Shown: positions 23,675 to 50,679 of the stretch, piece after piece
Numbering within the stretch: position 1 is the first letter of the stretch
Layout: every line of letters starts with the position of its first letter
Source of the DNA: Limisphaerales bacterium
Lineage (GTDB): Bacteria > Verrucomicrobiota > Verrucomicrobiia > Limisphaerales > SIBE01
Length of the DNA: 64,000 nucleotides
Assembly: GCA_044225505.1 (NCBI GenBank)
Contig: JBGAIN010000013.1
Span: 1-64,000 of the forward strand
Direction: 5' to 3'
Made by a program: the position numbers and the translations under genes
The notes under the pieces: generated by a model
Database searches by the model: none
Seen by the model: the letters and a program-made list of their open reading frames with translations, nothing else
What the model was told of the DNA's origin: nothing

Positions 23675-24028
23675 TTAGTAGGTGTGGCCTAAGCTGGCGC
23701 CGAGGCTGCAGGTCGGAGCCGTGGCGACGGTGCTGATGGAGTAGCTGCCACCGCCGGGTTCGAGCGGCATGATGCCACCCTTCATGTAAGGAGTAATGTC
23801 GGTGGTCGCAACGGTGTCTGCACCCTTCTTCTGATTTTCAAGAGCCCACTGCTGGATCGCGCCGTCGATCTGGCGCAGGTTGTTGATGCAAGCATTCTTC
23901 TGCGACGTGGTACGGGCGCGGACGAAGTTAGGAATCGCGATCGCCGCCAAGAGGCCGATGATGGCCACGACGATCATGATTTCTACCAGGGTGAAGCCGT
24001 GCTTGCGGTTGTTACGTTTAATTTGCAT
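23675..24028 (-). CDS. Type IV pilin-like protein (short major pilin candidate), copy 1
   Basis: Basic leader MQIKRNNRKHG|FTLVEIMIVVAIIGLLAAIAIPNF, ~106-aa mature chain, two Cys. Confidence 0.9.
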   Translation of the reverse strand: MQIKRNNRKHGFTLVEIMIVVAIIGLLAAIAIPNFVRARTTSQKNACINNLRQIDGAIQQWALENQKKGADTVATTDITPYMKGGIMPLEPGGGSYSISTVATAPTCSLGASLGHTY

Positions 24029-24410: not shown

Positions 24411-24767
24411 CTAGAAGGTGTGGCCCAACGACGCAGCCAGGCTGCAAGTCGGTGCCGTCTGGACATCGCTGACACTATAACTACCGCCGCTCGGCTCTGT
24501 TGGCATCACTCCCCCTTTAATATAGGGCGTAATGTCAGTCGTGGTCACGCTGTCGTTGCTCTTCTTCTGATTCTCGAGCGCCCACTGCTGGATGGCACCA
24601 TCAATCTGGCGAAGGTAACTGATGCACGAGTTTTTCTGAGACATGGTTCGTGCGCGAACGAAATTGGGGATGGCCATGGCGGCGAGCAAGCCGATGATGG
24701 CGACGACGATCATGATTTCAACAAGGGTGAAGCCCCGGTTGTTACGTCGATGGCGTTGCGTGGTCAT
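24411..24767 (-). CDS. Type IV pilin-like protein, copy 2
   Basis: RRNNRG|FTLVEIMIVVAIIGLLAAMAIPNF; colinear with copy 1. Confidence 0.9.
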   Translation of the reverse strand: MTTQRHRRNNRGFTLVEIMIVVAIIGLLAAMAIPNFVRARTMSQKNSCISYLRQIDGAIQQWALENQKKSNDSVTTTDITPYIKGGVMPTEPSGGSYSVSDVQTAPTCSLAASLGHTF

Positions 24768-24863
24768 GTCCAAGTTGCGTTTAGTATCCGAGTTCCGGCA
24801 GCAGTTAAATTGTTTTCAGGGCGAACCCTTTCAGGCAAACGTTGCGACCGTCTGGGATCTTAG

Positions 24864-33095: not shown

Positions 33096-36000
33096 TTACG
33101 GTGTAATGATGCGATAAAACCGAATCGTTCCGTTTGTCGTCGCGGTGCTATCGGTGAAGACCGCCACACTGGCCGAGGCCGTGATGTTGGTCAGGGTCGT
33201 CCACTGGACGACCGGGAGTAGATTGGTCGTGAACTGCACCTGGTAAGAGCTTCCGGGCTCAGTATCCCAGACGAATTGGAGCCGGCGATTGGACAGAACG
33301 AATGGGCTGCTCAACGTGACCCCATTGGTGGACGGAGGTGTATTGGTCGTGCTTGCACCCGAGTCGGACGCTACCTGGAAGAAGTGATAGGGCGTCGCCA
33401 CGGGCAAACACTGCGTTGTGATCGCGGCAGTTGCGGTGACGGTTGCCAGGTTGGTCCAGCCAGCGTCGGTGATCCCAAGCTTCCCTTGCAAACGATACGT
33501 CGTTCCGGGTTGAGAACTCCAGGAGAGACAGAGCCCGTTGGTGCCGAACGTCAATCCGGGATCGATCAAAGCTCCGTTGTTGGTCGAAGGTGGGTTCGTC
33601 GAAGTGCCACTGCCAATTTCGACTCCACGGAAGACGGTAAAGGCGATCGGCAAGTTCGTGCAGAAATTGAGTGCTGCGCCCGTGGCTGTGACTGGGCCGT
33701 AGAGCGTGGTCCAGTTTGTGGCTCGGAGATCGGCTTTGGCTTCCAAGCGGTATTGCCGCCCGGAAGTGGTGCTCCAACTGAAACAAATGTTCGTCGCGGA
33801 GGCGTCGATCTCAGGATCAAAGAACCGGTTGGTGCTCGTGTTTGGAACCGAGTTGGTCTGAGGGAACGATGCCCGCACCGTGAACTGCAGATTGGTCGCG
33901 GAGTTGTTCACGACCGCGAGCACCCAGTTACCGCCCAGATCCGTCAACAAGGGGCTGGGGTGCACCTGCACCGTGACCGGGGATGCGGCCGAGGCTGGGT
34001 TGCTGATCAGGTAGGAGGTTGGGCTGGGCAAGTTGTTTAGCCCGATCAAGAAATCGGCGTCTCCCGTCAGATTGAACAGTTCCAGTTTCACTTCGGAGGT
34101 CGGTTCCGGAACTTTCAAGATGAAGAAGTTGGTCAAGCCCGCGCCGCTCTGCAAAGCGAAATCGAATGGAACGTCGTTGGTCAGGACAACGATATGATAG
34201 CCCGTGTCGATTACTTCCGTCGCTTGGATCTGATACGAGACCGGGTTGGTCGACTTGTTAAAGACGGCCAAGTACCAGTTTCCTGGGAAGAGACCGACTG
34301 GGCTGGAGCTATTGGTCAGCACGATCGATTCATTCGTGAGGCCTGGTCGGTCGCTCAGGTAATCGAAAGAGTTTGTTCCAGGCAACGGCAAGCCCGAGCG
34401 GAGGACCAGTCCGACATCCCCGTTATTTGGGGTGACGGAGAAGTCGACGCGGGAAGCTGTCGGCGACACGGTGAAGACGTAATAGTCAAGTTCGTGCCGG
34501 GCGACAGTGTATTTGGGAAGCTGACGGCGTCTTCCAGCGCGATGATTTCGATGACGGCCGGCGGCGGTGGATTGGTCGTGCCTCCGCCCGTCCCTTCGAT
34601 GACTTGGAAGAACTGATAAGGAGTCGGCCGAGTGATGCAGTAGGTCGTAATGGTGTTCGTCGCCGTAAGAACAGGACTGAGACTTGCCCACGTGCTCTCG
34701 GTCACCGTCTGTTTGCCTTGCACCTGGTAAGTGACGCCGACCGTGGACGGCCACGATAGACAGATGCTGTTGGTGCTGACCGCCACCGAAGGATCGATAA
34801 TGTCGCCCGTGGGCGGCGGATTGGTGGTTCCTCCGCCCGTCCCTTCGATGACCTGGAAGAATTGGTAGGGAGTCGGCCGAGTGAGGCAATAGGTCGAAAC
34901 GGTATTCGTCGCCGTAAGAACAGGACTGAGATTTGTCCAGGTGAGGTCGGTCACCGTCTGTTTGCCTTGCACCTGGTAAGTGACGCCGACCGTGGACGGC
35001 CAGGACAAACAAATGCTGTTGGTACTGACGGTCACGGATGGATCGATAACGTTGCCCGTCGGCGGTGGGTTGGTGCCTGTGCCCAGCTCGACGCCACGGA
35101 AGAAATTAAACGGTGGCGGCAACGGCAGACAGAAGCTCATGAGCGTATTGGTGGCGGTGACCGGTCCGAAGAAAATCGACCAACTCGTGTCGGACAAGTT
35201 CGTTTTACCCTCCAACTGGTACTGCAAGCCCAAGGTTGCCGGCCACGAGAAACAGATGTTCGTGGTGGAAACGGAGATGTCCGGGTCAAAGACGCGGTTC
35301 GTCGTCGGCACCGTATTGGTCAGAGATAGAATCGTCGCCTTGATGTCGAACTGCAGGTTGACCGGATCTTTCGGCACGACAGAGAGCACCCAATTCCCGC
35401 GCAGGTTGGTGAGGGCGGCATTGGTCAACACGTCGAAAGTGATCGGTTGGCTTGGGGAAGCGCTGTTACTGCTGAAATAGTTGGTCGGACTGGGCAAGGT
35501 ATTGTAACCGATGAAAAGATCGGCATTGCCGTTCAGGTTGGTCAGTTCGAAACGAATTCCTGGCACGGGATCGAGCACCTCAAACAGGAAATAGTTCGTC
35601 AGCTTTTCACCCTGTAACAGAGTGAAATTGCGAGAAATTCCATTCGTGAGGGGAATGAGGTTGATATTGGTGTCGATGATCTGGCTGGCGCGGACGTCGT
35701 AAGTGACCAGGTTGGTCGAGTTGTTGTAGACGCCGAGATACCAATCGCCCGAGAGCAATGAAACGGGGCTGGATCCGTTAGTCAGGACGATCAGCTCGTT
35801 CGTGATGCCTACTTGGTCGCTCTTGTAGGCGAACGTGCTCAAATCGGGCAGGGGTCGGCCATAGCTGAGAACCAAGCCAACGTCTCCGTTGACGGGGCGC
35901 ACTTCAAACTCGGCTTCGATGGCCGCTGGCGAAACGTTGAAGACGTAGTAATCGAAGAGTGCTGCTGAGGGTGCCACGATGTTCGTATAGGGAACATCAT

Positions 36001-39000
36001 TGGTGAGTCGAATGACCGGCCGCTCGCCGTGGCATGTGTCGTTGTCGAACGAGATCCGGAAGTCGTAGGTATTCGTCTCGCCCAGATTCAGGTTGTGCAC
36101 GGCAAAGAACAGCGGAGTGCCCGGAATCAGCGGCGCGGGATGATGCGGGTTGGACGAGAGTTGGATGGTCGCGACGCCCTGGTCTGGGCTACCGTCTAAA
36201 GGAGTGTCATTGATCAGCGGCACATAATCGTCGGTATCGGGGTTACCCGTCGGGAAACCATTGCGGTCGATCAAGAGGTTGAGCTTGCCGATCGGTCCTA
36301 TCAATGTCGCGAAAGCGACCGTCGTCAGTTCGCAGGTGTCGACCACGAAGAAATTGGTCTGGGTGCCCACGATGCTGTTGGTGGAGGCAAACCCGTTGGT
36401 CAACGTGATTCCGCGCCCGGGCGGGTTACCATACTCGATTTGCAGCTCCCAATTGATCAGCGAGCCTCGGCTGCCCGTGGGACCGCGGCGGGTGTCACTC
36501 ACTTCGAGGGTCCAATCGCCTAACGCCCGTTCTCCCTGGAAGATGTCTAACGATTCCTCGGGGAGCACATAGACATTGGTGCCGACCACCACGTCGCCAA
36601 CCGTGACAGTGTCGAGCAGCGGCCCGCCCGACGTCAGTGATCCCAAGCGCAGGTCGGTCAACGGTTTGCTTGCGGTGAAGATAATGTTGGTCGATTGCCA
36701 GCCAAAGTCAGGAACCTCGATGAACTTTACCGTCCCATAGTCGACAAACAACGATTGCACGCGCTGCACAGCGCTAGGATTCCGTTGGTAATAGAAACTC
36801 AGGGCATAATCCTTGCCTGGCACAGTGGCGAAACTGGTGGAGATACTGGCCGCGGTGCCAACGGTGTTCTCCAGTTCGACGAAGTTCGTCCCGGTATGCG
36901 CGGCCACGCCTAAGGTGTCGCCCGACGAGTGGAGTTGCACCTGGCCTTGCGTGACGGTCCAACCCGCGAAGGTTTCGTTGGTCAGGTAGGTCCCCGGGTC
37001 CGCTCCCTCAAAGCTATTCGTGAACGCCGCGAGATTGGTCGAGAGATTCAGGTTCGTCCAGGGCGGCAGCGCGAACTTGATCGGGTTCAAATTGGCGATC
37101 AGATTCGTATCCTCAGTGAAGATCGTGTAGCTGATATTTGTTCCAAATCCGGAACCATAGCCGGAGGAATCGATCCCGCCGCGGTTCTCCGCGAGCAGCA
37201 AGCGAGTGCCCTGCGGGCTGACAAGATGCAGCACCAAGTCGGAAGACCGCGGGTGATCGATGCGAACTTTGACCTGCACGTCAGCGACCTGCTTGTCAAC
37301 GGGTATGTGCAAGGAAGAAGCAATCGTCCCGTCGTCGAGGAGCGGCACGACATTCGTCGATACCAGGTTGCGCCGGAAATCCAAACCCACGCCCAACTGG
37401 AACTCCGTCCCGATGTGAAAGTTAACCGTGGTGAGATTGGGGTTGTGGAGACAAACGAAATAGCGGCCAACACCCAGAGGAACAGGCTCGTCCTGGGCAC
37501 CATACATGAGGGTGCCGCCGGGAGGGTTGATTAACATCGATTTGTCAAAGCTCTCGGGAGTTGGCAACCCTCCGTGCGAGATGAACAGTTCGAGCGGTCC
37601 GGAGACTTGCGAAACGTTGACGATGAGGTTCGTGGCTTCGGGCGGCACATCGACGTAGTAGCACGTCGTGCCTTCCGGTCCCACCGTGCCATCAATCCCA
37701 GCACTGCCCGCGGCGCCCAGATCCGCATTCTGGAACGGTTCGATGCGCAGTGTGACGCTTTCCGCGCGTCCCGTATGGCTGGGCGCATTGTCGATGAAGT
37801 TCATAATCCAAACGCCGGTGCCGGAAGCCCCGGCGAAATCATTCAAACTGCCTGGCCCGTCCGAGCGGCGCGTGCCAAAGCCCTGGCTGAATCCTTGGTC
37901 GTCATAAACGAAGAAGGCGTTGGTAACGCTGGGGAAACCATTGTTGAGGGTGTGGTTATGCAACACGACTGAGTCTCTTTCGTGATCGAGGATCACGCTC
38001 AAATCCCCCACATCTTCGTGGCTGAGCACGTTGGTCACAGTCACGCGCTGGACGGTGATTGGCGAAATTCCGATGGCAATGACGGTCGCGCGCCCAGGAT
38101 TGTTGGCTGTGCCGTCTGGGATAGTTTGGGGAACGGGCATGCCATGCAAAATGCGGGCGCCATTCTGGTTTTCTTCAAACGGCTGATCACTGGAAAGCGC
38201 AATGAGCCCATACTCAGCGCCTTGCTGGTCTTCTGATTTGACACCGATGTAGTAGACATCGCCGATCGCGGCGTTCGTAAAAACCACGTATTCGGTGCCG
38301 CCGCGGGTGACCGAACTCCAAGCGCTGTCCACGACTGCGGGGACGAGGTCGACCAGGCGCGGATCTTTGGAAACGTAAAGGTCAATATCCGAGGAAAGCG
38401 TTCGAGGTTGACCGACATTGGGCGGAAGGAATGTCACGAAGGCGACATTAGTGCCGTTCGTTAGAGATGAGACTTCATTGGTGATGAAGATGTTCGTGAA
38501 GACATAGAAGTGCCACTGGTTCGTGAAGCCCGCGCGAGTGGAGCCCAGCGAACTGTTGGCGCCGACCCGTTCATTCAGCAGCGGCACTCCGTTCGTCATT
38601 GGGATGGCCGTGGCTTTAAATTCGGGTGGCGGAGCGATCGCGGTGACCGTTAATGCGTTGGTCACGGTGGTATCGCCCGTGGAAATGACCAGCGCGTAGT
38701 CCTGGACAATGTCGTTAATCCGGCCGGTGACCTGGTTGTAATTAGGGACGGCATTGACGTTCACACGCTTCGCGGTGACCGTGACTACGAAATTGCTGCT
38801 CGCTGGTTCGCGAATAAACACGTTCTCGACGTTGTTAATCACGTCCGGCAGGACAGTCTCGTCCACCGAGGCAGCCTGGGTAAAATCGCTCCCTTCCCGA
38901 ATGTCGTTTCCGTAAAACACTTCGCCGGAGACGGTGTTGGATACGACGAGATCGAGGTCATTGACCAGCTTGATGGCGGCGTTCGGATTCCCAGGCGGGT

Positions 39001-41266
39001 CGGTCCAAACCAACGTGACGCGCAACGGCACTTCTTGTGCGTTGGTCGCGAGGGCGACGCTCCAGGATTTCGATTGACCCGTGGCCAGCCCATTGGTCGT
39101 GACTTGATCGAAGAACCGGACTGGCCATCGGGCTTCTGGCTGAGTCGACAGCGAGGACGGTAAGGTATTGGTCAGGTTGACTAGTCCCCAGCCTTGGTAA
39201 TTGGCGGAGTTTTGGACTTGAAAATCATAAATCGAACCGAGCGAACGCGCGCCATTGATGAGGAGCGCCTTCAATAACGCTGGGCTGTTCGTGCGACGGA
39301 GGTTATTCGGCAGGCGCTGTTCGAAGAACTCTTGCATCAGGGCGAGCATGCCCGAAACGACTGGCGCGGCCTGGCTTGTGCCCGTCTCATACCGATACGT
39401 TGGACCGAGCGGCTCGTTCAAATCTTTGAGAATCTCATACTGATCCGAAGCCGGATCGACTTCGTTGTCCAGGTTCCAGTCTTTCGACCGCGTCGAAACC
39501 GTGAATACTCCCGGCGCGACCAGGTCCGGTTTGAATCGTCCGAATTCGCCTTCCGTACCGATGCCCACATTGCCACGGCTCGAAAAGGCCGCGACCTGGT
39601 CAACGCTGTCGGTCAACGGGAAGAACGGCGCGTTGGTCGAGATGGATCCATCCGTGTTCGTCGTAAAGACCGCATTCGTGATGTTTCGCAGATGCTCCGC
39701 CGCGCCCACCGTAATGACGTTCTTTCCGTTCGCCGGCGACGAAATGCTATTCGCTTCGCCGCCTTCGCCTGCGTCATTGCCTTCGCCGGAATTACCGGCG
39801 GCGAAAACAAAAACCATCGGTTGCGAGCCGCTGCCATCGGTAATGGCATCGCGCACCGCGGCGTCGAACTGCGCTGATGAAGAGTCGTACTCCGTGGCGC
39901 CGACGTAAGACCAACTGTTGTTCGAGACCATGGGGCCCGACCGACGCCGGGAGTAGGTCAGGTTCGTCCGTGCAGCCGTCTCGACGAGGTAACTGTCATT
40001 CAGGAATGGATGCACCTCCGGCAGATACATGCCGACCTCAGGCAACGCGCGAAATGGCAGGGAAAAGAGGCTGGCTTTCGGGGCGATTCCGCGAAAGTTA
40101 GCATTCGTTTCTGATCCTGGTGGAGCAGAGGCAACCGAGCTGGAGCGGGCTCCGCTGCCGGCAATGATTCCAGCCACATGGGTCCCATGCGCGACCAAAT
40201 CCGTCAGCCCTTCTGGTCGATCCGCGAAAATGCGCCCGGCCAGATCCGGGTTGGTGGCGTCGACTCCGCTGTCGTTAATGTTAATGAGGACGTTGGTCCC
40301 GGTCAGGTTGAGATAGTTGGTTGGACTGGACCCGGAAGGGGACAGCCCGATGACCACGCGGGTCAGGTCGGTCAGTAATTCCCGGTGGTGATAACGCTCG
40401 ATGATCTGGGCGGAGGCGACCTGCGCAATGGCTGGAAGACTGTCTGGCGTCGGTTTAACCAATAGTTGTCGACCGAACGGCGTCGGCCCTTCACCGACGA
40501 TTTCACCGCCGAGATTAGCGATCGCGGCGTTCAGGGCTTCCGCTTCGCCTGGAAACGCGGTCACCCGCAGCCAATCGTCTGGACTGAGCGGTTCCTTCTT
40601 AACGGCCAGGGGCAAGAGAGCGGAATCCAACTTGTAGTAAGGCTCAAACGGCAGCACCGCTTGGATCTCCGGTGCGGTCCCCAGACGCTGGGCGCTTTCG
40701 GATGTGAGGCGCACGAGGTAAGCGTTGTGCGGCACATAGGAAATGATATTCGCGCCTGCGGTTTGGAGGCGTTCTCGGAATGAATTCTCGATCGGCCCGC
40801 GCGCTTGCACAATATAACTCCCGGGGTCGCCGCTGCTGCGAAGGTGCTCCGGAATCGAAAGGCTCGCTTTCTCGCTCGTGTCGATGAAAGCAATATTCAT
40901 GAGCAGCGCTGTGGCTGTATGCGTCAGTTCTCGAATCGATTTCTTGCTGTTGCTTAAGCGGAACGGAAACCGATTGGTTGGGACGGTTGAGTCTGCCGCA
41001 GCGCTGGCGGGGCTGGCTGACGCGGGGCTCGATCCGGGAGCCTGCAGCGACGGAATCGAATTCGTATCGAGACGACTCAGGAGCTGAAAGGGACCAGGAC
41101 TGCCCGCGTTGCGGGCGCTCGGGGAATTCGTGGCCTCTTTTTCGCGGCCAGGTATGACGATTTTGCTCTTGCGGCTCTCGTAATCATTGCCGCGCTTCCA
41201 GAAATAGATGGCGCCGGCAAACAAGAGCAGGCTTAGCAAAAACCAGGTTCGACTTTCAAAACGCAT
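33096..41266 (-). CDS. Giant S8 subtilase (KP-43-like) with P-domains, PPC-like domains and six C-terminal beta-domains; 1-nt frameshift at ~34489; ~2723 aa if repaired
   Basis: Catalytic triad NDSGVD / HGTHVAG / GTSQAAP; KP-43 motifs (KPDLVAPG, ALLKALLINGA, VTLVWTDP, NDLDL); P-domain motifs (DLVLHLVSPQG, GDWTLEVSD); one extra base turns PGTN-LTIT into PGTN-FDYYVF and joins the downstream frame. Confidence 0.85.
34562..35060. repeat. Intragenic direct repeat with 249-nt period (83 aa)
   Basis: GTCCCTTCGATGAC at 34590 and 34839; near-identical ICLSWPSTVGVTYQVQGKQTVT...RPTPYQFFQVIEGTGGG units. Confidence 0.85.
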
Positions 41267-41567
41267 AGGTCAACACAGATCCCCAAAGCGACTTGGCCGC
41301 AGAGATACGGACGGGACCATAACATCGGGCTTCTCGCGAGGCGAGATTCTCTCGGCCCGACTGCCAGATCCGGGTGCGGCTGGCCATGACTACAACTTCG
41401 GATGAGTCCAGCCTCTCCATCCGACTCTTATTCTGCCTCGGGCGACTCCAGCCCGATCCCTGACGCGAGCTCCCCAAAGCCGATGCACGATGTTCAGAAA
41501 TGGCGCTGGCACTCTTAACCCCGGTCAGAGTTGCTTTTCCCCGCGTGACCAGCCAGCTCATGATCCG

Positions 41568-44500
41568 TTATTCAGGCTGTAAAACAGTGTAACTTTCGAC
41601 GACCGCGCGCATTTTTTGAGCAACGGGGGAGTTCGGATCACGCGCGGAGATGCGCTCAGCGGGTAATTCATCCAAACGTAAGACCGTCTTGCTCGCAAAC
41701 TCACCAGTCACCTGGTAGTTGGTGCAGAGGTTAAAGATAGGGGGATTGACGTTCGCCACCGTGACTAAAGAACGCGGCGCCGGCTTCAGAGCCTGGCCAA
41801 ACGCATAGACCACGACCCGCGGTTCGTCCGTTCGAAGCAACGAGAGAATCTGCTGCGGAATCCGCTCGTAAGCGGCATCGTCGATACCCTGTTCGTACTG
41901 CCGTCGATTTCCCCAGTTCAAATAGGGCGAGAGGACCGTCAACTCTGGCACGGACAGGATTTCACCAACGGTCCGGTAGGTCCGCGAGTTTTGGGCGGCC
42001 CGTGTCCGGTTGATGCCATCGACAATGTAAAACAGTTGCGGTGAGTTCGGTTGTATAAATATCTCGCGCGTCTGCGGGCGAAGCCGCGGGCCAATGGCGC
42101 CGTCCGCCGTGGTGTTGGTCAGGACAGCGACGCCGCTCAAGACGGCGGACCAGGACGCCAGATTGGTTTGATTGACGGCCAGCAAACCGCGGCTGGCATT
42201 TTCATTCGGCGCGATCGTGAACAGGTCGAGCAATTTCCAGTCGTTGGTCGGATGGGTGCCGTAGCTTCCCGACCACTGTCCCCAAGCTCTCAGATCGAGT
42301 GGTTGGCGTGTGCGCGGATCGATGGCCGGCTTCAGATACATCGTCTGCCAAGGTGTGCCACGGTGAACTCGCCCGAGCCAGCCAAGACTGGCCAATTGGT
42401 TGGTTGGGAATGACCACTCGTCCGAGTTACGCACGAGCGGATCTTTCATGGTCAAAGCGTAGGCGGTCGGGTCGTTGCTCGGATCTTTGTTTGGGTTACC
42501 TCCCCACGGACGGTAGCGTTGGTTTAACTGGCGCACGTAAGAATCGGTCTGAATATGGTGTTGGATCGCGTTCTCTGGACCTTCCAAAGGCTGGACAGTC
42601 AAATTCGTTGACCCGGCCACGACCGGTTCACTCAAGTCTTCCACGGTGTAATGCACCAGCGGATCATTCGCTTCCCAAGACGTCTTGTGATAAAGCCGGC
42701 GAGACGGTGTGAACGGCACTTGCCAAGTGAGATTGGTTTTACCTCCGCGCAGGAACGATGTGAACTCGGTAATCGCGGATTGTTTATCCGCCAGTTGCCC
42801 ACTCGAACTGCGCCAGGTTCCTTCGCCGGTATACGGCACGCCAGTGGAAACCGCGATTTGATTGATCGTGCCCATGGCTGGGGTGTCGACCGATTTTCCT
42901 ACATGGTTGGCATTCCACATGTCGCCCGGTCCGAGTGAACTTGGGGTAGCGACTCGAGAGCCGGTCCCTGTTCGATTGCGATCACTGAAGATCCCACCGC
43001 CGCCCGCGTTGGTGTCGCCGGTCATCCCTTTGCTCAGATCAATGTCCGTCACGAGCTTGTCGACGTTCACGAAATCAATGACTCGCGATGGGCGCACGCT
43101 GTTATCGACAAGGATGTACTGGAGGCGATTGGTCATGCGGATCCACCACTGCGGCACGCGATAGCTTCTTTCGAACAAATTGACGTTCAGGTTGGTCGCC
43201 AGCGACAGCAACTGCCCGCTGCTGGCCATATACGCCGAGGTGGTGAGGCGCGTGACATTGGTGTCAATCGGGACGATGAAACTGGTGGGCGAAGTCAAGT
43301 TGCTGCTGCCAGGCCAGCTCGTCAGGACCAACGAGTTCGTGAGCAACAAAGGCTGGACGACGGGCAGATACTCGCCCGCCGTTCCTTCGTTCCGGTGATG
43401 CAGCGAGAACGTCGATTGACTCGCTACCCGCAACTGCAAGTTACGTTCGAAATTGCGCGGATAAGAATTCCAACCTTCGATGACAAACCGGTTGGAAACG
43501 CCAATCATGTAGAGCTGATTGGTTTCGGTGGGTAATCCGCTCAGCGTGGTCTTGCGAACTTCGAGGCGCCGGCTGACTTCCGCCAGCGTCTGCACGACCA
43601 TTTTGTTGAAGTTCGGATAGCCTTTCTTGGCCCCGATCACGAGGGGGACACCGATCAGATTGACGTTCGTGACGACGGTATTCAATGGGAATGCGGCTGC
43701 GCCTGCTTGCCGCCCCATCGCTTGTTCGATTGTCATCCAGCGATTGTTGTCGAGGAAAAGCGCGTCATTCTCTTCCACGAATCCGCGAATGGTCAGATTT
43801 GTGTCGGTGCGCAAGAACACCGGACGGAAGACGGAGGGATAATCGTTTGTCGTCCCGAGCGTGCGAACGGTGGTGGCATCGTGGATGTTCGCGGCCAGCT
43901 GTAAGAGTCGGTGCGTCGCGGACGAATACTCATTGTTCGTCATGTAAAACGGCCGCAAGTTCACCTTGTCCGCATCCACATGAAACAGCTGGATGTTCGT
44001 GACCGAAAAGTCTTTCCGGACCGGAGTTAATCCAAGCATGAAATTGGTCTGCCGCAACGTCCCATTCGTTAGGACAATCGGATCCAAGCTGGCCCGGAGC
44101 ATGCGGTCGGCCGCGCCGGTGAAGAAAGCCTGACGCCCTGCCGGATTGATGTTCCAGGAGACGAAGTTCGTCTGTCCGTTGGGCGTAAAGTTCTGGTAAT
44201 GCAAATGCATCCGGTTGGTAGGGTGCAACTGGAAATCGGGGAAATAAACTCGGTTTGACTCTGGGGTGCGTGAATCGACGCCCATCTGGGCGAGCAGTCG
44301 GTAATAGGTATACCGATCGTAAAGCGTGGCAAGCTGGTTGGTGCTGCGCCCCATCAGACGCTGAATAAACCCAGGCGAAGTCCGGTTCGTGCTGAACAAC
44401 TCTTGAATATCATAATACCCGTTCGGGTTTGGGCTTCCGGCCCAAGCGAGATTCGGGTTGTCCGCGAACAGGTTGGGACTGATCGGGCCGTCCGAGTAAT

Positions 44501-45488
44501 AATCGATGCCGTTCGTCGTAAAGGGGTTTTGGCCGTTGGGCAGATTGTAGAGCGCTCGCGCGGAGGCCAGATTGGCTAAACTGCCGTCGTAGCGATTGCT
44601 CAGGATCACACGGGCGTCTTCAAACGCCACGCCACTGCTCGGGATGTTTTGGTTCGTGATGTAGTTGTAGGAGAGATTTCCTTGACCCCACGAATAGACG
44701 TTGGTGTTCAATCCGGCCCAGAAACCCGCCAGATTGATTTCCCAAGACCCAACCCCTTGGTTCCGCAAGTAGCCATTGGCCGAGACATTGTTCGCGATTC
44801 CCTTGGCATTGTTGTGGATGAAGTTGAGATCCAGACTTTTGCCCGCGGGTAACACCGCAAACGCATAACGTCCAACAAAGCGATTACTCTCAGAATGGGG
44901 CCGGTCCGGCCTCTCCAAAACACCAATCCATTGCGGATCGCCCACAAAGAAGTTTGTCGTGCGCGACTCCTGATTAGTAATCATACCAGTCCGCTCAAAC
45001 TGGCCATTCCGGTTCAAATCGAGGAAGAACCGAAAGTCGTTCGATCCCAGTCCAGTTTGACTGGCCAATAGGAACACCGGGGGCCGAGGATCAAATTGGA
45101 GGTTTCCGATGTTTTGGGCCCAATCTCGGGTATCCACTGCGCTTCCTCCGGCGCGCATGCCTGTGCCATTGCTGCGCCGATCATAGTTTACGTTGTAGGC
45201 GTTGGTGTTATTCGAGCGGAAGCCAACGGGATCGTAGTAATTGGTTGAAACGATAAAGTCGTAGTCGAAAATGTTTGTCGTCGCGAGGATTCGAGCGGCA
45301 ATTTCCGATTGGGCACGGGCGACGGCCGTATCGGTCATTAACCGGGCGGTGATAATATCTCCGGTGACGGTCACGGACGCTCTCTCGCGGCGGCTGACAG
45401 CGAGAAAGACGACCGCCATAAAGGTCACCAACGCTAACATGATCAGCGTAATGACCAGGGCGACGCCGCGTTCTGAATTGCGTTTCAT
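41568..45488 (-). CDS. Giant PilX/GspK-like minor pilin (Verru_Chthon cassette protein A-like)
   Basis: MKRNSERG|VALVITLIMLALVTF leader lacking Glu5; GRYAFAV...LDLN motif; 1306 aa. Confidence 0.75.
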   Translation of the reverse strand: MKRNSERGVALVITLIMLALVTFMAVVFLAVSRRERASVTVTGDIITARLMTDTAVARAQSEIAARILATTNIFDYDFIVSTNYYDPVGFRSNNTNAYNVNYDRRSNGTGMRAGGSAVDTRDWAQNIGNLQFDPRPPVFLLASQTGLGSNDFRFFLDLNRNGQFERTGMITNQESRTTNFFVGDPQWIGVLERPDRPHSESNRFVGRYAFAVLPAGKSLDLNFIHNNAKGIANNVSANGYLRNQGVGSWEINLAGFWAGLNTNVYSWGQGNLSYNYITNQNIPSSGVAFEDARVILSNRYDGSLANLASARALYNLPNGQNPFTTNGIDYYSDGPISPNLFADNPNLAWAGSPNPNGYYDIQELFSTNRTSPGFIQRLMGRSTNQLATLYDRYTYYRLLAQMGVDSRTPESNRVYFPDFQLHPTNRMHLHYQNFTPNGQTNFVSWNINPAGRQAFFTGAADRMLRASLDPIVLTNGTLRQTNFMLGLTPVRKDFSVTNIQLFHVDADKVNLRPFYMTNNEYSSATHRLLQLAANIHDATTVRTLGTTNDYPSVFRPVFLRTDTNLTIRGFVEENDALFLDNNRWMTIEQAMGRQAGAAAFPLNTVVTNVNLIGVPLVIGAKKGYPNFNKMVVQTLAEVSRRLEVRKTTLSGLPTETNQLYMIGVSNRFVIEGWNSYPRNFERNLQLRVASQSTFSLHHRNEGTAGEYLPVVQPLLLTNSLVLTSWPGSSNLTSPTSFIVPIDTNVTRLTTSAYMASSGQLLSLATNLNVNLFERSYRVPQWWIRMTNRLQYILVDNSVRPSRVIDFVNVDKLVTDIDLSKGMTGDTNAGGGGIFSDRNRTGTGSRVATPSSLGPGDMWNANHVGKSVDTPAMGTINQIAVSTGVPYTGEGTWRSSSGQLADKQSAITEFTSFLRGGKTNLTWQVPFTPSRRLYHKTSWEANDPLVHYTVEDLSEPVVAGSTNLTVQPLEGPENAIQHHIQTDSYVRQLNQRYRPWGGNPNKDPSNDPTAYALTMKDPLVRNSDEWSFPTNQLASLGWLGRVHRGTPWQTMYLKPAIDPRTRQPLDLRAWGQWSGSYGTHPTNDWKLLDLFTIAPNENASRGLLAVNQTNLASWSAVLSGVAVLTNTTADGAIGPRLRPQTREIFIQPNSPQLFYIVDGINRTRAAQNSRTYRTVGEILSVPELTVLSPYLNWGNRRQYEQGIDDAAYERIPQQILSLLRTDEPRVVVYAFGQALKPAPRSLVTVANVNPPIFNLCTNYQVTGEFASKTVLRLDELPAERISARDPNSPVAQKMRAVVESYTVLQPE

Positions 45489-46495
45489 TGCAGGGCTGTC
45501 CGAATGGGAATTCTTTGCCGAAACAAGTGGACCTTAGCCGCTTGTTTTTGCAGATACGCGTTCGCGGTCTTGGGCGAATCGCGGAGCGACTGATATTGTT
45601 TCAAAGCGCCAGGCTCAAGCACGCCCAGTTCTAACTCTAAATATGCCGGCAAGGCATTGCTCACGAAAGAAAACTGCGTCTCGCGAGGGATCAAGGCTCC
45701 CTGCAAGATGACTTGCGCATCGTAAGCGTTCGCTGCGGTGCTCGTCAGCCCGATACGTTGCCCATTCCGATTGAGGCGCAGCATGCGGTAAAATGGAATA
45801 TCGTTCGTCGTTTCCCAGCCCAAGCGCCGACCTTCATGGTCGTAAGGCGTCAAGCGGAGGTGAATGACCCCGTCAGCGACTCGATTGAAGTTGGTGGAGA
45901 GCAGTCCGGACGCGCTGTTCGTCGTCAGGCGGGCGTGTTCAAATTGTCCGGAAAGATTGGTGAAGTTCAGGCCTCGATAATTCGTCGACACCGTGAACCG
46001 ATACAGTGTTCCGACTCCATCGTCTGCTTCCAAAACCCGATAGCCGGTTCCCACCCACTTGTTGGCTTGCCGACTCATGAAGAAAAACTCCTGCAGCACA
46101 TTGGTTCGCAGCGGATCTCGGGACGGTTCGAGATCCAGTTGGGTCAGGGGAGGAAGGCGAGTTTGAGCGGTGACATTGATCGTTTGGCCAAGATTGCACG
46201 CGCCGATCTGTTCCAACTCGCGGCCCATCATTTCGGATGCCGCACGACCGGACTCGAGCACGTCGACCTGCGTGATATTGGCGCGGAGGGCTTTCTGGGT
46301 CTGGTTGAACATCGCGTAGAGCGCATAGATGATCACCATCATGATTGAGACGGCGGTCAGAAGTTCAATCAGACTGAACGCGGCGCGACGCGGATTGGCC
46401 TGCGCCCGCGTTAGCCCATGACGCCAAGGCGAGTTAAGAGACGCGAGCCGCGCTGCCAGACGAACCGGCCGAGAATGGGTAGTTCGCGTTTGCAT
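45485..46495 (-). CDS. PilW/GspJ-like minor pilin (Verru_Chthon cassette protein C-like)
   Basis: A|FSLIELLTAVSIMMVII...FNQTQKA; C-terminal LPAYLELEL; ATGA overlap with the next gene. Confidence 0.78.
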   Translation of the reverse strand: MQTRTTHSRPVRLAARLASLNSPWRHGLTRAQANPRRAAFSLIELLTAVSIMMVIIYALYAMFNQTQKALRANITQVDVLESGRAASEMMGRELEQIGACNLGQTINVTAQTRLPPLTQLDLEPSRDPLRTNVLQEFFFMSRQANKWVGTGYRVLEADDGVGTLYRFTVSTNYRGLNFTNLSGQFEHARLTTNSASGLLSTNFNRVADGVIHLRLTPYDHEGRRLGWETTNDIPFYRMLRLNRNGQRIGLTSTAANAYDAQVILQGALIPRETQFSFVSNALPAYLELELGVLEPGALKQYQSLRDSPKTANAYLQKQAAKVHLFRQRIPIRTALQ

Positions 46496-46498
46496 CGA

Positions 46499-47320
46499 TC
46501 AATGGGCGGAAAAGAACGTGGAAGGCTCGAAAATATAAAGGTAAGGCGTCGAATTGGTATAAACAGGCACCAATTCCCCACTCACCAACGTGCGCAAAGT
46601 GCGGCGATAACGCCCCACATCCCAAGTTGAACCTCGTTGGAAGAGCGGCCATTGCATGGTCACGCGAACCTCATAGAGGTTTTGATTCAGGTTCACGGAC
46701 CGTAAAAGCTCGTTCCGCGGGAGGTTCACCGCTAACTGCGGTGGGACATTCGTAAACGGCAACACTTCCGCGATGACCTGGTAACGAAACGCGAAATCGA
46801 TCATCTTGGAACTCTTGTCCAAGGCGCCACCGCTGATCGATCGCATCCGCGCGGTCACAACGTTGAAGCGATTCGGAAACTTAGGATCGTCTACTTTCGG
46901 TGTGCTCAGCAAAGAAATAATGTGCTGAGAGTTGGTCAGCGGCAGGAATTGGCCCGGGTTGAAAGGATTGTTTGTGTAAGTGAGCGTTTGCGCTCCGCGC
47001 CGGATTGAGATGGATTCAATATAGTTGGTCAGATCTTCCGCGCCTTTCGCTCCGCTGCGAATCGCTTCGATCAGGTAAGAGGCGTCCTGATTAATGATGG
47101 TATCTTCGCGATTCTCGCGTTGCACTTTCAGCCCAGAGGGAAGCACGCCGATGATCGCCACCAGCGCAAAAGCAATGATCCCAAGGGCGAGCGCGATCTC
47201 GACCATGGTGAACGCCGAACGCGGAGTGGCGCCGCGGGAGCTTGAGAGCGTTTGCCACCTGCCCGTCATCGAAAGTCTTTGATCGGGGGCTTCAACCCGC
47301 GCTGGGGAAGAGAGTTTCAT
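46499..47320 (-). CDS. PilV/GspI-like minor pilin (Verru_Chthon cassette protein B-like)
   Basis: A|FTMVEIALALGIIAFALVAIIGVLPSGL; TAATG overlap with the upstream gene. Confidence 0.78.
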   Translation of the reverse strand: MKLSSPARVEAPDQRLSMTGRWQTLSSSRGATPRSAFTMVEIALALGIIAFALVAIIGVLPSGLKVQRENREDTIINQDASYLIEAIRSGAKGAEDLTNYIESISIRRGAQTLTYTNNPFNPGQFLPLTNSQHIISLLSTPKVDDPKFPNRFNVVTARMRSISGGALDKSSKMIDFAFRYQVIAEVLPFTNVPPQLAVNLPRNELLRSVNLNQNLYEVRVTMQWPLFQRGSTWDVGRYRRTLRTLVSGELVPVYTNSTPYLYIFEPSTFFSAH

Positions 47321-48111
47321 TATCGAAAATCGGGAAGCTCCACCTTGGCACGTCCGGTCAGCCAATTGATGCGAGCAAACTGATAGGTATTCGTTTGGCT
47401 GGCTGGCGGCCGGTTCGGATTCACGACCGGATCCAACTGCCAGTCCGGCGTCTCCAGCTTGACAGCTCCAGTTGAAGTTCGGATCGGAAAGACGCTTCCT
47501 TTGGCGATGGTCACGATCTCATCACGCTGAGAGATCAGTTGTCCTTGCGCATTGAACCCGATACACGGCAATGCAAATCGGGCGCTTCGAGACATGGGAA
47601 AGGGAAGAATCTCGCGTGCAAAGCTTCGTGAATAGTCGCTTGCCAACCCGGTGTTCCTCGGATCGAACTTGTAGGGCGCGAAGAGCAGCCCGTCGGGTAA
47701 CGAACGCCATTCCGTGAGGTAACGGGGAGTAGGCCGGCCTGGCTGATCTCCGACCGTTCGGCTGCTGACAATCGCATACGCTGTGTACTGGGCTGTGAGA
47801 AGGTTGGTCAGTTGCCGGAGCTCAGCCGCTGTGCGCGGCGCCGCGCTAAAGGCGTCGATAATGTTGAACGGGGTGAACACCATATAAACCGGCGCGCGAT
47901 CATTGATCGCTCGCAGGCGCGCCAGCGCGATGTCATCGAGAATCTGACGGTGCGCCGCGGCATTGCGATTGGCCTGGCCCATTCCTTTCATCGCTGGAAC
48001 AGCGATGGAGGCCAAGATGCCAATGATGAGCATCACGACCATGAGCTCAATGAGCGTAAACGCTCGACGTCGGACCGCTGTCCGGCGATTTACTCTCCGA
48101 TCGCTTCTCAT
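47320..48111 (-). CDS. FimT/GspH-like minor pilin (Verru_Chthon cassette protein D-like)
   Basis: A|FTLIELMVVMLIIGILASIAVPAM; ARLRAI; GFNAQG; C-terminal INWLTGR. Confidence 0.8.
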   Translation of the reverse strand: MRSDRRVNRRTAVRRRAFTLIELMVVMLIIGILASIAVPAMKGMGQANRNAAAHRQILDDIALARLRAINDRAPVYMVFTPFNIIDAFSAAPRTAAELRQLTNLLTAQYTAYAIVSSRTVGDQPGRPTPRYLTEWRSLPDGLLFAPYKFDPRNTGLASDYSRSFAREILPFPMSRSARFALPCIGFNAQGQLISQRDEIVTIAKGSVFPIRTSTGAVKLETPDWQLDPVVNPNRPPASQTNTYQFARINWLTGRAKVELPDFR

Positions 48112-48155
48112 GGTCGATTGCCAGCTCATAGGTGCCAAAGCCCGGGAACCCGAGG

Positions 48156-48965
48156 TTATTTCCAGTTCAGAATATTATCCTTGTTCACGCCTTTGTTGGC
48201 CGGAACGCGAGGGTCCGCGACGCCATCGGGTCCTAATGACCACACCATTACCGGACCGCGATACTCAAAAGAGTTGGCGGTGCGCGTCGCCTTGAAAAGG
48301 CCGTTAAAACCTTTCTGGCCGCCCGCGCCGGTCGGGTCAAGAGAGACAGAGTCGCGGCAATAAAACCCGTCGCGGCACCGGTCGTCGCCATTCATGTCCA
48401 AGCTGACGATGTAAGGGTTGCCCCAAGGATCACGATAAAGACCGTCCGGCCCAATGCCAGAAGGGCGAGCCCCATCTGTTTCTTTGGCGTTTAAGAACGT
48501 GATCTTTTGCGGATTCAAGGCATGGCCCGCATTGACGGTCGGGCTGCCATCGCGGAACTGCTCGATATCCTTGAGAATCGCCATCAGTTCGGAGTTGTTC
48601 CGCTGGTCTTTGCCGTTCAATCCGTATGTCTCAACCTGCGACGCCACGCCTTTTTTGTTCTTGGTGTAGCCGCCGCGATAATAAGTGCCATACGTGAAGT
48701 CGGGAGTCACATCGGGATTATCCAACGCCGCCCGCACGTCGCGAGAAGCGGGCATACGGCTGTATGTCGTGACGTAGGAATTGATCGCCCCAGCCAAATC
48801 ATTGATCTCCATGCTCGCCTTGGTGATCTGCGCTTTGATCTTGGCTTTGCTGAGAACGGGGATGGCCATGCTCGCGAGGACGCCGATGATGCTGATGACC
48901 ACGAGCAACTCAATCAGAGTAAACCCGGCGCGGTAGCGCCCGGGACGAAACGATGCGGAGTTCAT
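48156..48965 (-). CDS. GspG-like pseudopilin
   Basis: [32 protein letters not shown]...DNILNWK GspG C-terminal motifs; frame is open upstream to 49217. Confidence 0.85.
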   Translation of the reverse strand: MNSASFRPGRYRAGFTLIELLVVISIIGVLASMAIPVLSKAKIKAQITKASMEINDLAGAINSYVTTYSRMPASRDVRAALDNPDVTPDFTYGTYYRGGYTKNKKGVASQVETYGLNGKDQRNNSELMAILKDIEQFRDGSPTVNAGHALNPQKITFLNAKETDGARPSGIGPDGLYRDPWGNPYIVSLDMNGDDRCRDGFYCRDSVSLDPTGAGGQKGFNGLFKATRTANSFEYRGPVMVWSLGPDGVADPRVPANKGVNKDNILNWK

Positions 48966-49221
48966 AGTTTGACTTTGGATCCTAGAACGAGCAGATCGGG
49001 ATTTACGGAATGATAGCGGAGTAACCGGGATTCGGGTTTGACGCGGACTCGAAGGGTCTGCGCGCAACTTCACATTGTGTGGCAGGCGGGGCGACGTCGA
49101 GTGGCAGGAACCGTTAATGGACTGGGCCTCGACAACTTCAATGCGCTGACGCCAGCGCGAGGAAGACCACTTCACAGGCAAACGCCGCGATGGATAGATG
49201 GGCAATCGTGACAGCATAACA

Positions 49222-49956
49222 TTAGGGACTGAGCACGACTGGGTCTCTCTCCCAATTGCTGAAGCGCATCAGTTTTCCGTTAATAAGAACTTCAGTCCAA
49301 AGGTCGTAACGGTCCGGGTTATTGGTCGCTCCCGTCGAAACGTAAAGCCATGGATTCACGGTGACGGAACCGCCTGGGTTTAATGCCCACACGGCCGGAC
49401 CCCGCACGGGGGTTATTAACACATCGATCAATTGGTTCTGGTAAGTCACCTGCTTGTACTGACTAGCCTTGAACTCGGTCGTAAACTTAAGGTCTTTCTC
49501 AACCCGCGCCGCATTGGCAAAGCCGGAACTGCCAAATACTGCCTGGATTGTGTTGGGGCTGATCGGCTCCTGCCGTCCGACAACGTAGAACTGATTATTC
49601 TTATAGACCGTTCCGCTCAGTTCATAAAAAAGTTGGTTTGGGGATGGAATGCTCGGAACCCCGTCGGCTGCGTTTAGGGGGCGGTGATCAGGAGGGTAAA
49701 AGCCAAGATTGGATTTGTAGTTTTCAATGTCCCCAATCAACTTGCTCATCTCGATCCGAACGCGGGCTTCCTTGCTCTTGCGCGTGGCGAGCCCGGTCAA
49801 CCCGACAATCAATCCCGCAAGCACGCCGATAATGCTGATGACGACTAAGAGTTCGATCAGCGTAAAGCCCCTACGGGTTGACCGCGAAGTCTGTGGAGTT
49901 GGAGCCGCCCCCGGGTTCTGCTCGACTCTCGTTTGCATTGTGCTGACTTGGCTCAT
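49222..49956 (-). CDS. GspG-like pilin/pseudopilin
   Basis: [24 protein letters not shown]...GFYPPD; NPWLY...YDLW; start uncertain (49938, 49956 or 49995). Confidence 0.82.
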   Translation of the reverse strand: MSQVSTMQTRVEQNPGAAPTPQTSRSTRRGFTLIELLVVISIIGVLAGLIVGLTGLATRKSKEARVRIEMSKLIGDIENYKSNLGFYPPDHRPLNAADGVPSIPSPNQLFYELSGTVYKNNQFYVVGRQEPISPNTIQAVFGSSGFANAARVEKDLKFTTEFKASQYKQVTYQNQLIDVLITPVRGPAVWALNPGGSVTVNPWLYVSTGATNNPDRYDLWTEVLINGKLMRFSNWERDPVVLSP

Positions 49957-49960
49957 TGGT

Positions 49961-50236
49961 TCAACGTTCCCGCATCTCGTTTTCCATGCGTTCACTTAGC
50001 CACTGCTTGATCATGCTTTGGTAGTTCAGGTATCTGGACCTGGCCAATCGCTTAATTCGTGCCAACATTCGCGGATCGATCCGCAGCGTGATCGTGACCG
50101 ACTCCAAATCGTCCGATGCGGCCGCGACCGCCGATTCCATCAGCCGCAAGTCGATCCGATTCTCCGCCCAAAAGCTCGCTTCGGCATCTTCGCTGTCGAA
50201 GAGGGGAACGTCTTCCCAATTAACAATCGCATTCAT
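49961..50236 (-). CDS. CopG/BrnA-type ribbon-helix-helix antitoxin-like protein
   Basis: PLFDSEDAEASFW N-terminal motif; ITLRIDPRMLARIKRLA...YQSMIKQWL RHH. Confidence 0.85.
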   Translation of the reverse strand: MNAIVNWEDVPLFDSEDAEASFWAENRIDLRLMESAVAAASDDLESVTITLRIDPRMLARIKRLARSRYLNYQSMIKQWLSERMENEMRER

Positions 50237-50313
50237 CGTTCCTTCTGCGCGCCTTTGCGCCTACCGAGCGCTCTCTCTCGTAACGCTCAGGTCGTGGTCT
50301 TATCTCGCTCCGC

Positions 50314-50601
50314 CTAACGGGACAGAGTCTGATCGAGCTTCCGCTGGTAGAAGAACTGTTCTTCGGGCACAAAGGGACGGGCTCGAATCACCCGAATCTG
50401 TTTCCCATTCGTCCGATACACGCTGAAAACTCCCAGACCTGTCGCGGATTTGCCCAAGTTAAAGTACCGGGCCTGGACGGAGAACCGGCCTGAATCCGGC
50501 AATAGGCGAATCGCGAACGGATCTTCGAACGATTCTTCTACATCACGGGGCGTCAAAGAACTATCCCACTCGAACGGCGGATTATTCCAATCAAACTCCA
50601 T
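50314..50601 (-). CDS. BrnT-like toxin-fold protein (degenerate N-terminus)
   Basis: MEFDW start, EESFEDP, RYFNLG, VFSVY, IRVIRAR, E..FY; lies upstream of the CopG-like gene. Confidence 0.75.
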   Translation of the reverse strand: MEFDWNNPPFEWDSSLTPRDVEESFEDPFAIRLLPDSGRFSVQARYFNLGKSATGLGVFSVYRTNGKQIRVIRARPFVPEEQFFYQRKLDQTLSR

Positions 50602-50614
50602 GCGAAAAGAGTCA

Positions 50615-50679
50615 ATTGTAAATTAATCGGCCATGCAATGTGATTACAATGTATTTACGCATCGGCACTCATTTGTCAA
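50615..50679 (-). promoter_or_regulatory. AT-rich promoter/operator region of the brnT-like gene
   Basis: Minus-strand TTGACA (50674-79) and TACAAT (50615-20) hexamers; near-palindrome TGTGATTACA at ~50639-48. Confidence 0.4.

Follow-up and report, generated by a model that had tools for sequence, protein, structure and literature searches.

A conserved Limisphaerales type IV filament operon headed by a BrnT-fold/ribbon-helix-helix gene pair and ending in a giant subtilase gene

The window analysed here is a 64,000-nucleotide stretch of a Limisphaerales bacterium (Verrucomicrobiota; GenBank assembly GCA_044225505.1, contig JBGAIN010000013.1, positions 1 to 64,000), which carries a run of nine co-oriented genes encoding a BrnT-fold protein, a ribbon-helix-helix (RHH) protein, six type IV pilin-like proteins and a giant subtilase (Table 1). 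All nine are present on the minus strand at window 33096..50601, where a reading of the sequence alone had placed them, and the close joins described in that reading are confirmed by coordinates and junctions: the gaps amount to 77 nt for brnT/rhh, 4 nt for rhh/G1, 26 nt for G2/H, 3 nt for I/J and 301 nt for K/protease, and H/I and J/K overlap as TAATG and ATGA, respectively. The gap between G1 and G2 is 4 nt with the long G2 start at 49217 and 256 nt when G2 is taken to begin with the ATG at 48965, the G2 frame being open for 84 codons 5' of its likely start (window 48966-49217). The assignment of the pilins as G-G-H-I-J-K is borne out by family matches and by the fold of K, and their class III signal peptides place them in the type IV filament superfamily; in the leaders of H, I and J, Ala replaces Gly before the cleavage site. 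A 101-aa open reading frame (ORF) at 41256-41561 is taken as spurious, having no match in 60 relatives. In the following, G000 denotes the source genome of the window, other G numbers denote other genomes, C numbers contigs, and L numbers loci or homologues.

Table 1. Features of the filament locus (window coordinates)
Feature	Position	Strand	Supporting evidence
Promoter and putative RHH operator	50634..50679	(-)	TTGACA-type -35 box; repeated GTA(A/T)(A/T)AC boxes, 11-bp spacing, over -10 region
BrnT-fold pseudo-toxin, 95 aa	50314..50601	(-)	PF04365 21 bits, below cut-off 34.5
CopG/BrnA-type RHH protein, 91 aa	49961..50236	(-)	PF12441 41 bits, above cut-off 28
GspG-like pilin 1 (G1), mature 214 aa	49222..49956	(-)	N_methyl; TIGR01710 40 bits, below cut-off
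GspG-like pilin 2 (G2), mature 255 aa, DPWGNPY motif	48156..48965	(-)	PF08334 above cut-off; TIGR01710 56 bits
GspH/FimU-like minor pilin (H)	47320..48129	(-)	TIGR02596 and TIGR01708 N-terminal matches, below cut-off
GspI/PilV-like minor pilin (I)	46499..47320	(-)	TIGR02598 and TIGR02523 N-terminal matches, below cut-off
GspJ/PilW-like minor pilin (J)	45485..46495	(-)	TIGR02599 and TIGR01711 N-terminal matches, below cut-off
Giant GspK-type tip pilin (K), 1306 aa, lacking Glu+5	41568..45488	(-)	Model of homologue L134
Giant S8 subtilase, 2723 aa read through frameshift	33096..41266	(-)	PF00082 134 bits; PF01483

The operon is observed throughout the order Limisphaerales. K matches 192 of the 201 genomes of the order, G000 included, where it is single copy, and among 300 genomes from outside the order its profile finds a single match, weak and N-terminal; brnT was detected in 179 of the 201, with one match only in 172 of these. 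Two partly overlapping sets of loci were compared, namely the best 80 brnT loci, with counts limited to those having enough sequence, and 60 loci from the best 150 of 186 brnT matches, picked for K on the same long contig. In the former, rhh comes next after brnT in 79/79 loci, G1 next in 78/78, and the protease gene next after K in all 39 loci with room for it; in the latter, the gene order is kept across the 60 loci (G2 was not found in one) and the protease follows K in 58, the remaining two stopping at a contig end. This synteny upholds the tight linkage of the toxin-antitoxin (TA)-like pair and the protease to the pilin genes. The distances of pair, K and protease also correlate across 53 loci (rho 0.49, 0.55 and 0.76; 0/500 permutations), which is expected from co-inheritance and which kinship alone would also give. 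In three loci without the pair, pilC stands directly before G1 and there is no operator.

Relatives also reveal the motor of the system. Of the 65 loci with at least 2 kb of flank, 55 have a pilC gene at most 1.5 kb upstream of brnT, and pilB-pilT-pilB precedes pilC where the contigs extend that far. The full order of the operon is pilB-pilT-pilB-pilC / promoter / brnT-rhh-G1-G2-H-I-J-K-S8, and the first block, being directly upstream in relatives, is taken as the cognate motor. In G000 this block sits on contig C40, moved away from the pilin genes by rearrangement. The locus is thus almost certainly the regulatory and filament half of a conserved Limisphaerales type IV filament operon. The sequence-only reading had proposed shared core machinery encoded elsewhere, which is true of G000 through rearrangement but does not describe the 55 relatives with pilC directly upstream. 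It had also noted the lack of ATPase, platform, secretin and prepilin peptidase genes nearby, and none was found in a scan of the nine genes and some neighbours; whole-genome family searches place all matches to these four families on other contigs, none on C27. All four components are present in the genome, as in type IV filament systems generally. The PilT orthologue passes TIGR01420 (453 bits against a cut-off of 319), the remaining ATPases have similar scores for GspE and PilB, slightly below the cut-off in each case, and there are two pilMNOPQ-like operons and one prepilin peptidase. PilB, PilT, PilC and PilMNOPQ, the type IVa pilus set, are therefore all present, with both pilMNOPQ operons as candidates for the cognate one, and pilT inside the linked motor block departs from type II secretion systems (T2SS), a hallmark of which is the lack of a PilT retraction ATPase.

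At the head of the pilin genes stands a pair with the organization of a BrnT/BrnA TA module, a BrnT fold followed by an RHH antitoxin gene. The model of the BrnT-like protein (predicted local distance difference test, pLDDT, 85.7) is most similar to 7vd7 (Z 10.9) and 3u97 (Z 6.5), and the RHH part of its partner is nearly invariant among 61 sequences. Across the 60 loci, median identity to the window proteins is 76% for the BrnT-like protein and 78% for the RHH protein, as against 36-44% for the pilins, 37% for K and 40% for the protease; the 150 listed brnT matches span 63-89%. PurQ has a median of 72% in the same genomes (best match in 53 of the 54 genomes with a hit, out of the 60; a split gene in G088 was left out). 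Hence the pair is conserved at the level of a housekeeping protein. Its toxin residues have fared differently. PMC5086665 names D6, E7, K9, R41 and E78 as functional residues of BrnT, and PMC13284704 states that K16, H17 and R72 contribute to toxicity, each citing a BrnT study. In an alignment to 3U97, the window protein keeps three of these eight residues as named in those texts, the equivalents of R41, R72 and E78 (R45, R75 and E81), and lacks the N-terminal Asp-Glu-x-Lys and the Lys-His residues. A K/R-H dyad occurs in 0/61 sequences of the order and in 0/33 subfamily rows, as against His in 19/19 and K/R-H in 15/19 canonical rows (the alignment comprising 46 roughly full-length rows of 150 hits, five genome hits and the window). 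The absence of the dyad throughout the subfamily suggests that the toxin has been disarmed, and we consider it somewhat more probable that it is inactive or much attenuated than that it is fully active.

The region upstream of brnT contains an operator core in 59 of 61 cases, and in 76 of 78 in the second locus set, with an upstream TTGAC box followed 15-17 nt later (53/55) by GTAAATACA(T/A)TGTAA-type repeats. G000 has a single strong site of 45 bits, the next best scoring 13.4. The BrnTA module binds and represses its own promoter according to PMC5086665. The conserved predicted operator supports the earlier proposal of control by a co-opted TA-like pair, and the pair is likely to be a transcriptional regulator of the filament operon. 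A wider regulon among the other pilin genes of G000 was not found, with sites scoring at least 9.5 before 1/52 pilin heads and 32/3012 other heads, and a consensus promoter/terminator scan gave matches at chance level.

Outside the order, the BrnT-like subfamily was found in 8/300 genomes of one sample and 19/28 of another. A pilin gene directly follows rhh in 15 of 22 such loci; eight of these 15 had been chosen for K nearby, and the six unchosen loci of the same batch are all linked. The operator precedes brnT in 11/14 linked loci versus 0/7 detached ones, and in genomes with detached pairs a pattern search placed sites just before Verru_Chthon-type cassettes. Operator-like sites scoring at least 9.5, a threshold set after viewing the data, precede 13/35 giant-K cassette heads in five pair-bearing genomes versus 0/21 in two without the pair. 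In fresh genomes, with criteria fixed beforehand and G511 excluded for its unclear pair status (score -5.1), the counts are 4/11 versus 0/7 (Fisher p 0.11 alone), and the pooled counts are 17/46 with the pair versus 0/28 without, the 28 coming from three lineages only and some scored heads being truncated or probably misplaced. These figures are suggestive of a trans regulon of detached cassettes. Individual loci illustrate the range of arrangements. L335 (G508) and L336 (G502) differ in their order (pilC - G - brnT - rhh - G) and have the H-I-J-K cassette at another site, and the detached cassette of G508 carries a strong operator (18.5 bits). Linkage of the pair and the operator to a G-G-H-I-J-K cassette is also seen in L193 (G208, which belongs to a different class of the phylum) and implies an ancient link or transfer. 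L227 (G323:C33:112050-112068) is a perfect operator-like palindrome between a Verru_Chthon A gene and a divergent gene whose product looks like proS at its N-terminus.

The giant K protein was modelled in the form of its homologue L134 (1180 aa, 44% identical to window K; pLDDT 84.6, predicted template modelling score 0.81). The top structural match of this model is GspK (3ci0_K: Z 7.2, root-mean-square deviation 2.6, 106 aligned, range 30-1179), followed by ComZ (Z 6.9), ComEA-type helix-hairpin-helix domains (6.2) and XcpX (5.5); the pilin matches align from the N-terminal helix through the last strand, at middling Z values. Foldseek found nothing for the model with an E value of 0.001 or lower. 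In the modelled protein the pilin fold is split and is completed by the protein's own C-terminal strands; it also has a helix-hairpin-helix region and a large inserted beta-sandwich, and the homologue is accordingly of the GspK type as found at T2SS tips. According to PMC12918778, PilY1 donates the last strand to PilK, and GspK and CpaL supply their own; the model places K with the self-complementing, GspK-like type rather than the PilK-like one. No PilY1-type propeller is among the 50 structural matches listed for the model, which does not exclude them. The sequence-only reading had suggested a check against the hidden Markov models of Verru_Chthon A-D, and no protein of the locus exceeds a cut-off: the matches are all N-terminal, at 25.8/332, 25.5/51, 25.1/256 and 42.6/70 bits/cut-off for TIGR02600, 02598, 02599 and 02596, respectively. 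In a profile comparison with three true Verru_Chthon A proteins, K aligned over the first 53 columns only. Given these scores and the confinement of the likeness to the first 53 residues, we reject a Verru_Chthon identity for the cassette. The size of K alone is not new, since giant K-like genes occur widely in the class, often in several copies.

As read in the window, the protease gene has a frameshift near 34486, which leaves a 2303-aa ORF with its tail in a different frame. Labelled sequencing runs from activated sludge and a bioreactor were compared, leaving out runs with small word shares; contigs of X1 and X4, from two studies, have one extra base at the frameshift, and X8 and the RNA run X15, which gave short scattered contigs only, have no coverage there. 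The frameshift is probably an assembly error, and the intact gene of 2723 aa agrees with the earlier estimate of about 2720. A real pseudogene is rejected in view of the extra base in X1 and X4 and of the intact genes of 1699-3225 aa in relatives with a finished ORF. The protein has a conserved N-terminal hydrophobic anchor segment followed by basic residues, a Peptidase_S8 domain with an intact D332/H360/S631 triad, P-domains, DUF642/PPC-like domains and six copies, in window 33096-35300, of a C-terminal domain of about 70 aa, which has RFYR as its last residues and which we term RFYR. The latter has no Pfam or NCBIfam family, and the Atlas returns only unnamed Verrucomicrobiota clusters. It occurs in 130 ORFs of G000, in 116 of them at most 25 aa from the C-terminus, and in 62 of 151 genomes of the phylum; among the relatives whose protease ORF is finished, every one has 1-8 copies in the protease, apart from one that is interrupted by Ns. 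Its position makes it a candidate sorting or anchoring signal. Both pilMNOPQ-like secretin operons of G000 (G000:C208:14210-25656 and C78:914-18300) are followed by large RFYR-ending proteins, and a second, more distant S8 protease at G000:C303:48281-53608 (1775-codon frame) is also RFYR-ending.

From this anatomy and conservation we infer operator binding, loss of toxicity, co-transcription and export in a scheme of the following kind. An RHH dimer would bind the GTA(A/T)(A/T)AC repeats over the -10 box and set the expression of the whole pilin-protease unit, with the BrnT-fold protein acting as RHH partner or co-repressor and not as an RNase; in orders with a relocated pair, the latter would reach the cassettes in trans. 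PilD would process the pilins, H-I-J-K would nucleate the tip, for which giant K, like GspK, would bring its own licensing beta-strand, and G1/G2 would form the shaft. The two PilB/GspE-like ATPases and PilT would extend and retract the filament through a PilMNOPQ conduit encoded elsewhere. The subtilase would be Sec-translocated on its N-terminal anchor, freed by prodomain autoprocessing and exported by the machine as dedicated cargo. The filament itself is most likely a retractile hybrid of T2SS and type IVa pilus with a giant self-licensing tip. As to the protease, the arguments for and against its passage through this filament machine are about evenly balanced. Taken as a whole, a domesticated, probably disarmed TA pair controlling the genes of a filament machine that exports a dedicated subtilase is the reading we favour, with reasonable rather than strong confidence.

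Several observations weigh against this reading. On the side of the operator, shuffled controls reach the threshold at 3-4%, 4/52 non-pilin operon heads also do so, and 29/46 cassette heads in pair-bearing genomes have no site, to which are to be added the late choice of threshold, the modest significance of the fresh test and the narrow lineage base of the negatives. The pair was not found in G151, G043 and G102 and is dispensable in some lineages, and the selection of 60 loci from the best 150 of 186 brnT matches inflates the brnT identity. R45, R75 and E81 are kept in 60, 60 and 58 of 61 sequences, and RelE-type RNases function without a His, which weighs against a loss of activity. The best Z of K, 7.2, falls in the range that the tool calls common. 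The gap between K and protease in relatives varies from 3 to 2052 nt (median 134), so that the two may not be co-transcribed; none of the 22 loci outside the order yielded an S8 gene, so the protease looks to have been added in this order to an older unit of pair and pilins; and other T2SS-like loci of G000 could export it.

Four rival explanations were weighed. The pair could be a still-active BrnTA under its usual autoregulation, with the pilin genes riding on its promoter, stabilised by addiction or tied to stress; its BrnT fold, toxin-first order and retained R45/R75/E81 would fit this, as would the binding and repression of its own promoter by BrnTA (PMC5086665). The subfamily-wide loss of the Lys-His dyad and of the N-terminal D/E/K residues speaks against it, as does housekeeping-level conservation, in contrast to a family that PMC2701414 describes as mobile. 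Where pairs are detached, moreover, their own 5' end lacks an operator, which the cassettes of these genomes often have, and cassettes persist without the pair, all of which makes an active module rather unlikely. A different view of the machine, by analogy with PorU, the processing or anchoring protease of type IX secretion, takes it as an export route for RFYR-ending proteins in general, the subtilase processing or anchoring them. The abundance of the domain in G000 and its position near the C-terminus, the N-terminal signal-like segments of many of these ORFs, the RFYR copies in the protease of nearly all relatives and the RFYR proteins following both pilMNOPQ operons may all be read in this way. 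Nevertheless, the domain extends to 62/151 genomes of the phylum, but the K family to 1/300 genomes outside the order, and weakly; the link to the protease was not found outside the order, a hydrophobicity test barely parts RFYR ORFs from controls (77/118 versus 56%), and broad-specificity S8 proteases are mostly degradative. We regard such a general route as quite unlikely.

The slot after K, which is that of pilY1 and mshQ (PMC12918778), and the presence of a PilT raise the question of whether the protease is a PilY1/MshQ-like tip component held by C-terminal strand complementation. Since K closes its own sheet in the model, the protease is an improbable strand donor; it also ends in a domain common to more than 100 unrelated proteins, and cassettes outside the order lack such a gene, leaving this alternative very unlikely. 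The idea of a swappable, mobile tip cassette on generic machinery, advanced in the sequence-only reading, draws on the separation from the motor genes in G000 and in 10/65 relatives and on the multi-copy giant-K cassettes of other orders. For this order it is largely refuted and scarcely credible, the cassette being single copy in G000 and near-universal in the order, and the distances of the pair co-varying with those of K and protease (rho 0.49-0.76, as above). A broader version of the favoured reading, in which a TA module disarmed early in Verrucomicrobiota became the master regulator of giant-pseudopilin systems, in cis or in trans on multi-copy Verru_Chthon-type cassettes, and the Limisphaerales machine became a retractile secretion system recognising the C-terminal domain of about 70 aa on more than 100 proteins, with the subtilase processing or anchoring that cargo, we consider unlikely.

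Comparison with known systems suggests partial likeness to several of them. The T2SS pseudopilus GspG-H-I-J-K (PDB: 3CI0, 5VTM) shares the gene order and GspG-like subunits, and its GspK, like window K, lacks Glu+5 and has its own C-terminal strand and a helix-hairpin-helix region. Unlike the T2SS, the locus has two G genes, oversized subunits, a K four times longer, a linked PilT with two assembly ATPases and a TA-derived head, and no gspC/L/M is among the genes mapped at it. With the type IVa fimU-pilV-W-X-Y1 cluster it has in common the PilB/PilT/PilC motor, PilMNOPQ encoded elsewhere and a large secreted protein after the K/X gene; its operon pilins, however, are of GspG type and not PilA/PilE type, K is self-complemented and the last gene encodes an S8 protease, not a beta-propeller adhesin. 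The Verru_Chthon A-D cassettes of Verrucomicrobiota share a giant K-like gene of about 1300 aa with H/I/J-like genes, and operator-like sites precede some true ones, but the proteins of the locus score far below the cut-offs, and true cassettes occur in multiple copies, detached from motor genes. The tip pilins ComZ (6QVI) and CpaL resemble K in a C-terminus-closed pilin fold split by a large insertion (PMC12918778), whereas the insertion of K is different and larger, and a competence or surface-sensing role is without support here. The BrnT/BrnA TA family (COG2929/COG5304) shares fold, toxin-first order, RHH partner and upstream operator with the pair, which differs in having lost the Lys-His and N-terminal acidic/Lys residues, in being fixed, mostly single-copy and conserved at housekeeping level, and in heading or targeting pilin operons. 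Pilus-dependent subtilase secretion in Dichelobacter nodosus is a precedent for a retractile pilus system exporting subtilases, and PorU of type IX secretion is one for a machine-linked protease carrying the C-terminal domain of its cargo. No description of the operon, the pair or the RFYR domain was found in the literature searched, in which subscription journals were mostly outside coverage.

If true, the favoured reading would provide a clear case of a TA pair that has become the transcription factor of a surface machine, fixed and inherited vertically, and such domestication bears on the open question of the purpose of chromosomal TA systems. For the giant-pilin cassettes of Verrucomicrobiota, as yet uncharacterised, it would also supply a candidate regulator together with an operator sequence and a cognate motor, and the hybrid of T2SS-type tip and PilT motor, together with the unnamed C-terminal domain, hints at how an abundant soil and water order surfaces large enzymes.

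Some further features of the window and the genome were recorded. A link to the pur genes was rejected, as no pur gene occurs in the flanking sequence retrieved for the 80 brnT loci. A 616-aa ORF at 30949-32799 (-), 3' of the protease, has no Pfam/NCBIfam match above cut-off. Two short PilA-like pilins of about 107 aa when mature are encoded at window 23675-24028 and 24411-24815 (-) and might be the major pilins of a genuine type IVa pilus; short PilA-like genes sit elsewhere in G000, none of them inside the pilin operon. In the genome as a whole, 122 ORFs match a strict prepilin motif, six ATPases belong to the PilB/GspE class and there are six secretin matches, and at G000:C260:88643-89155 (L200) a secretin domain lies within a 4328-codon open frame beside a T2SS-like locus.

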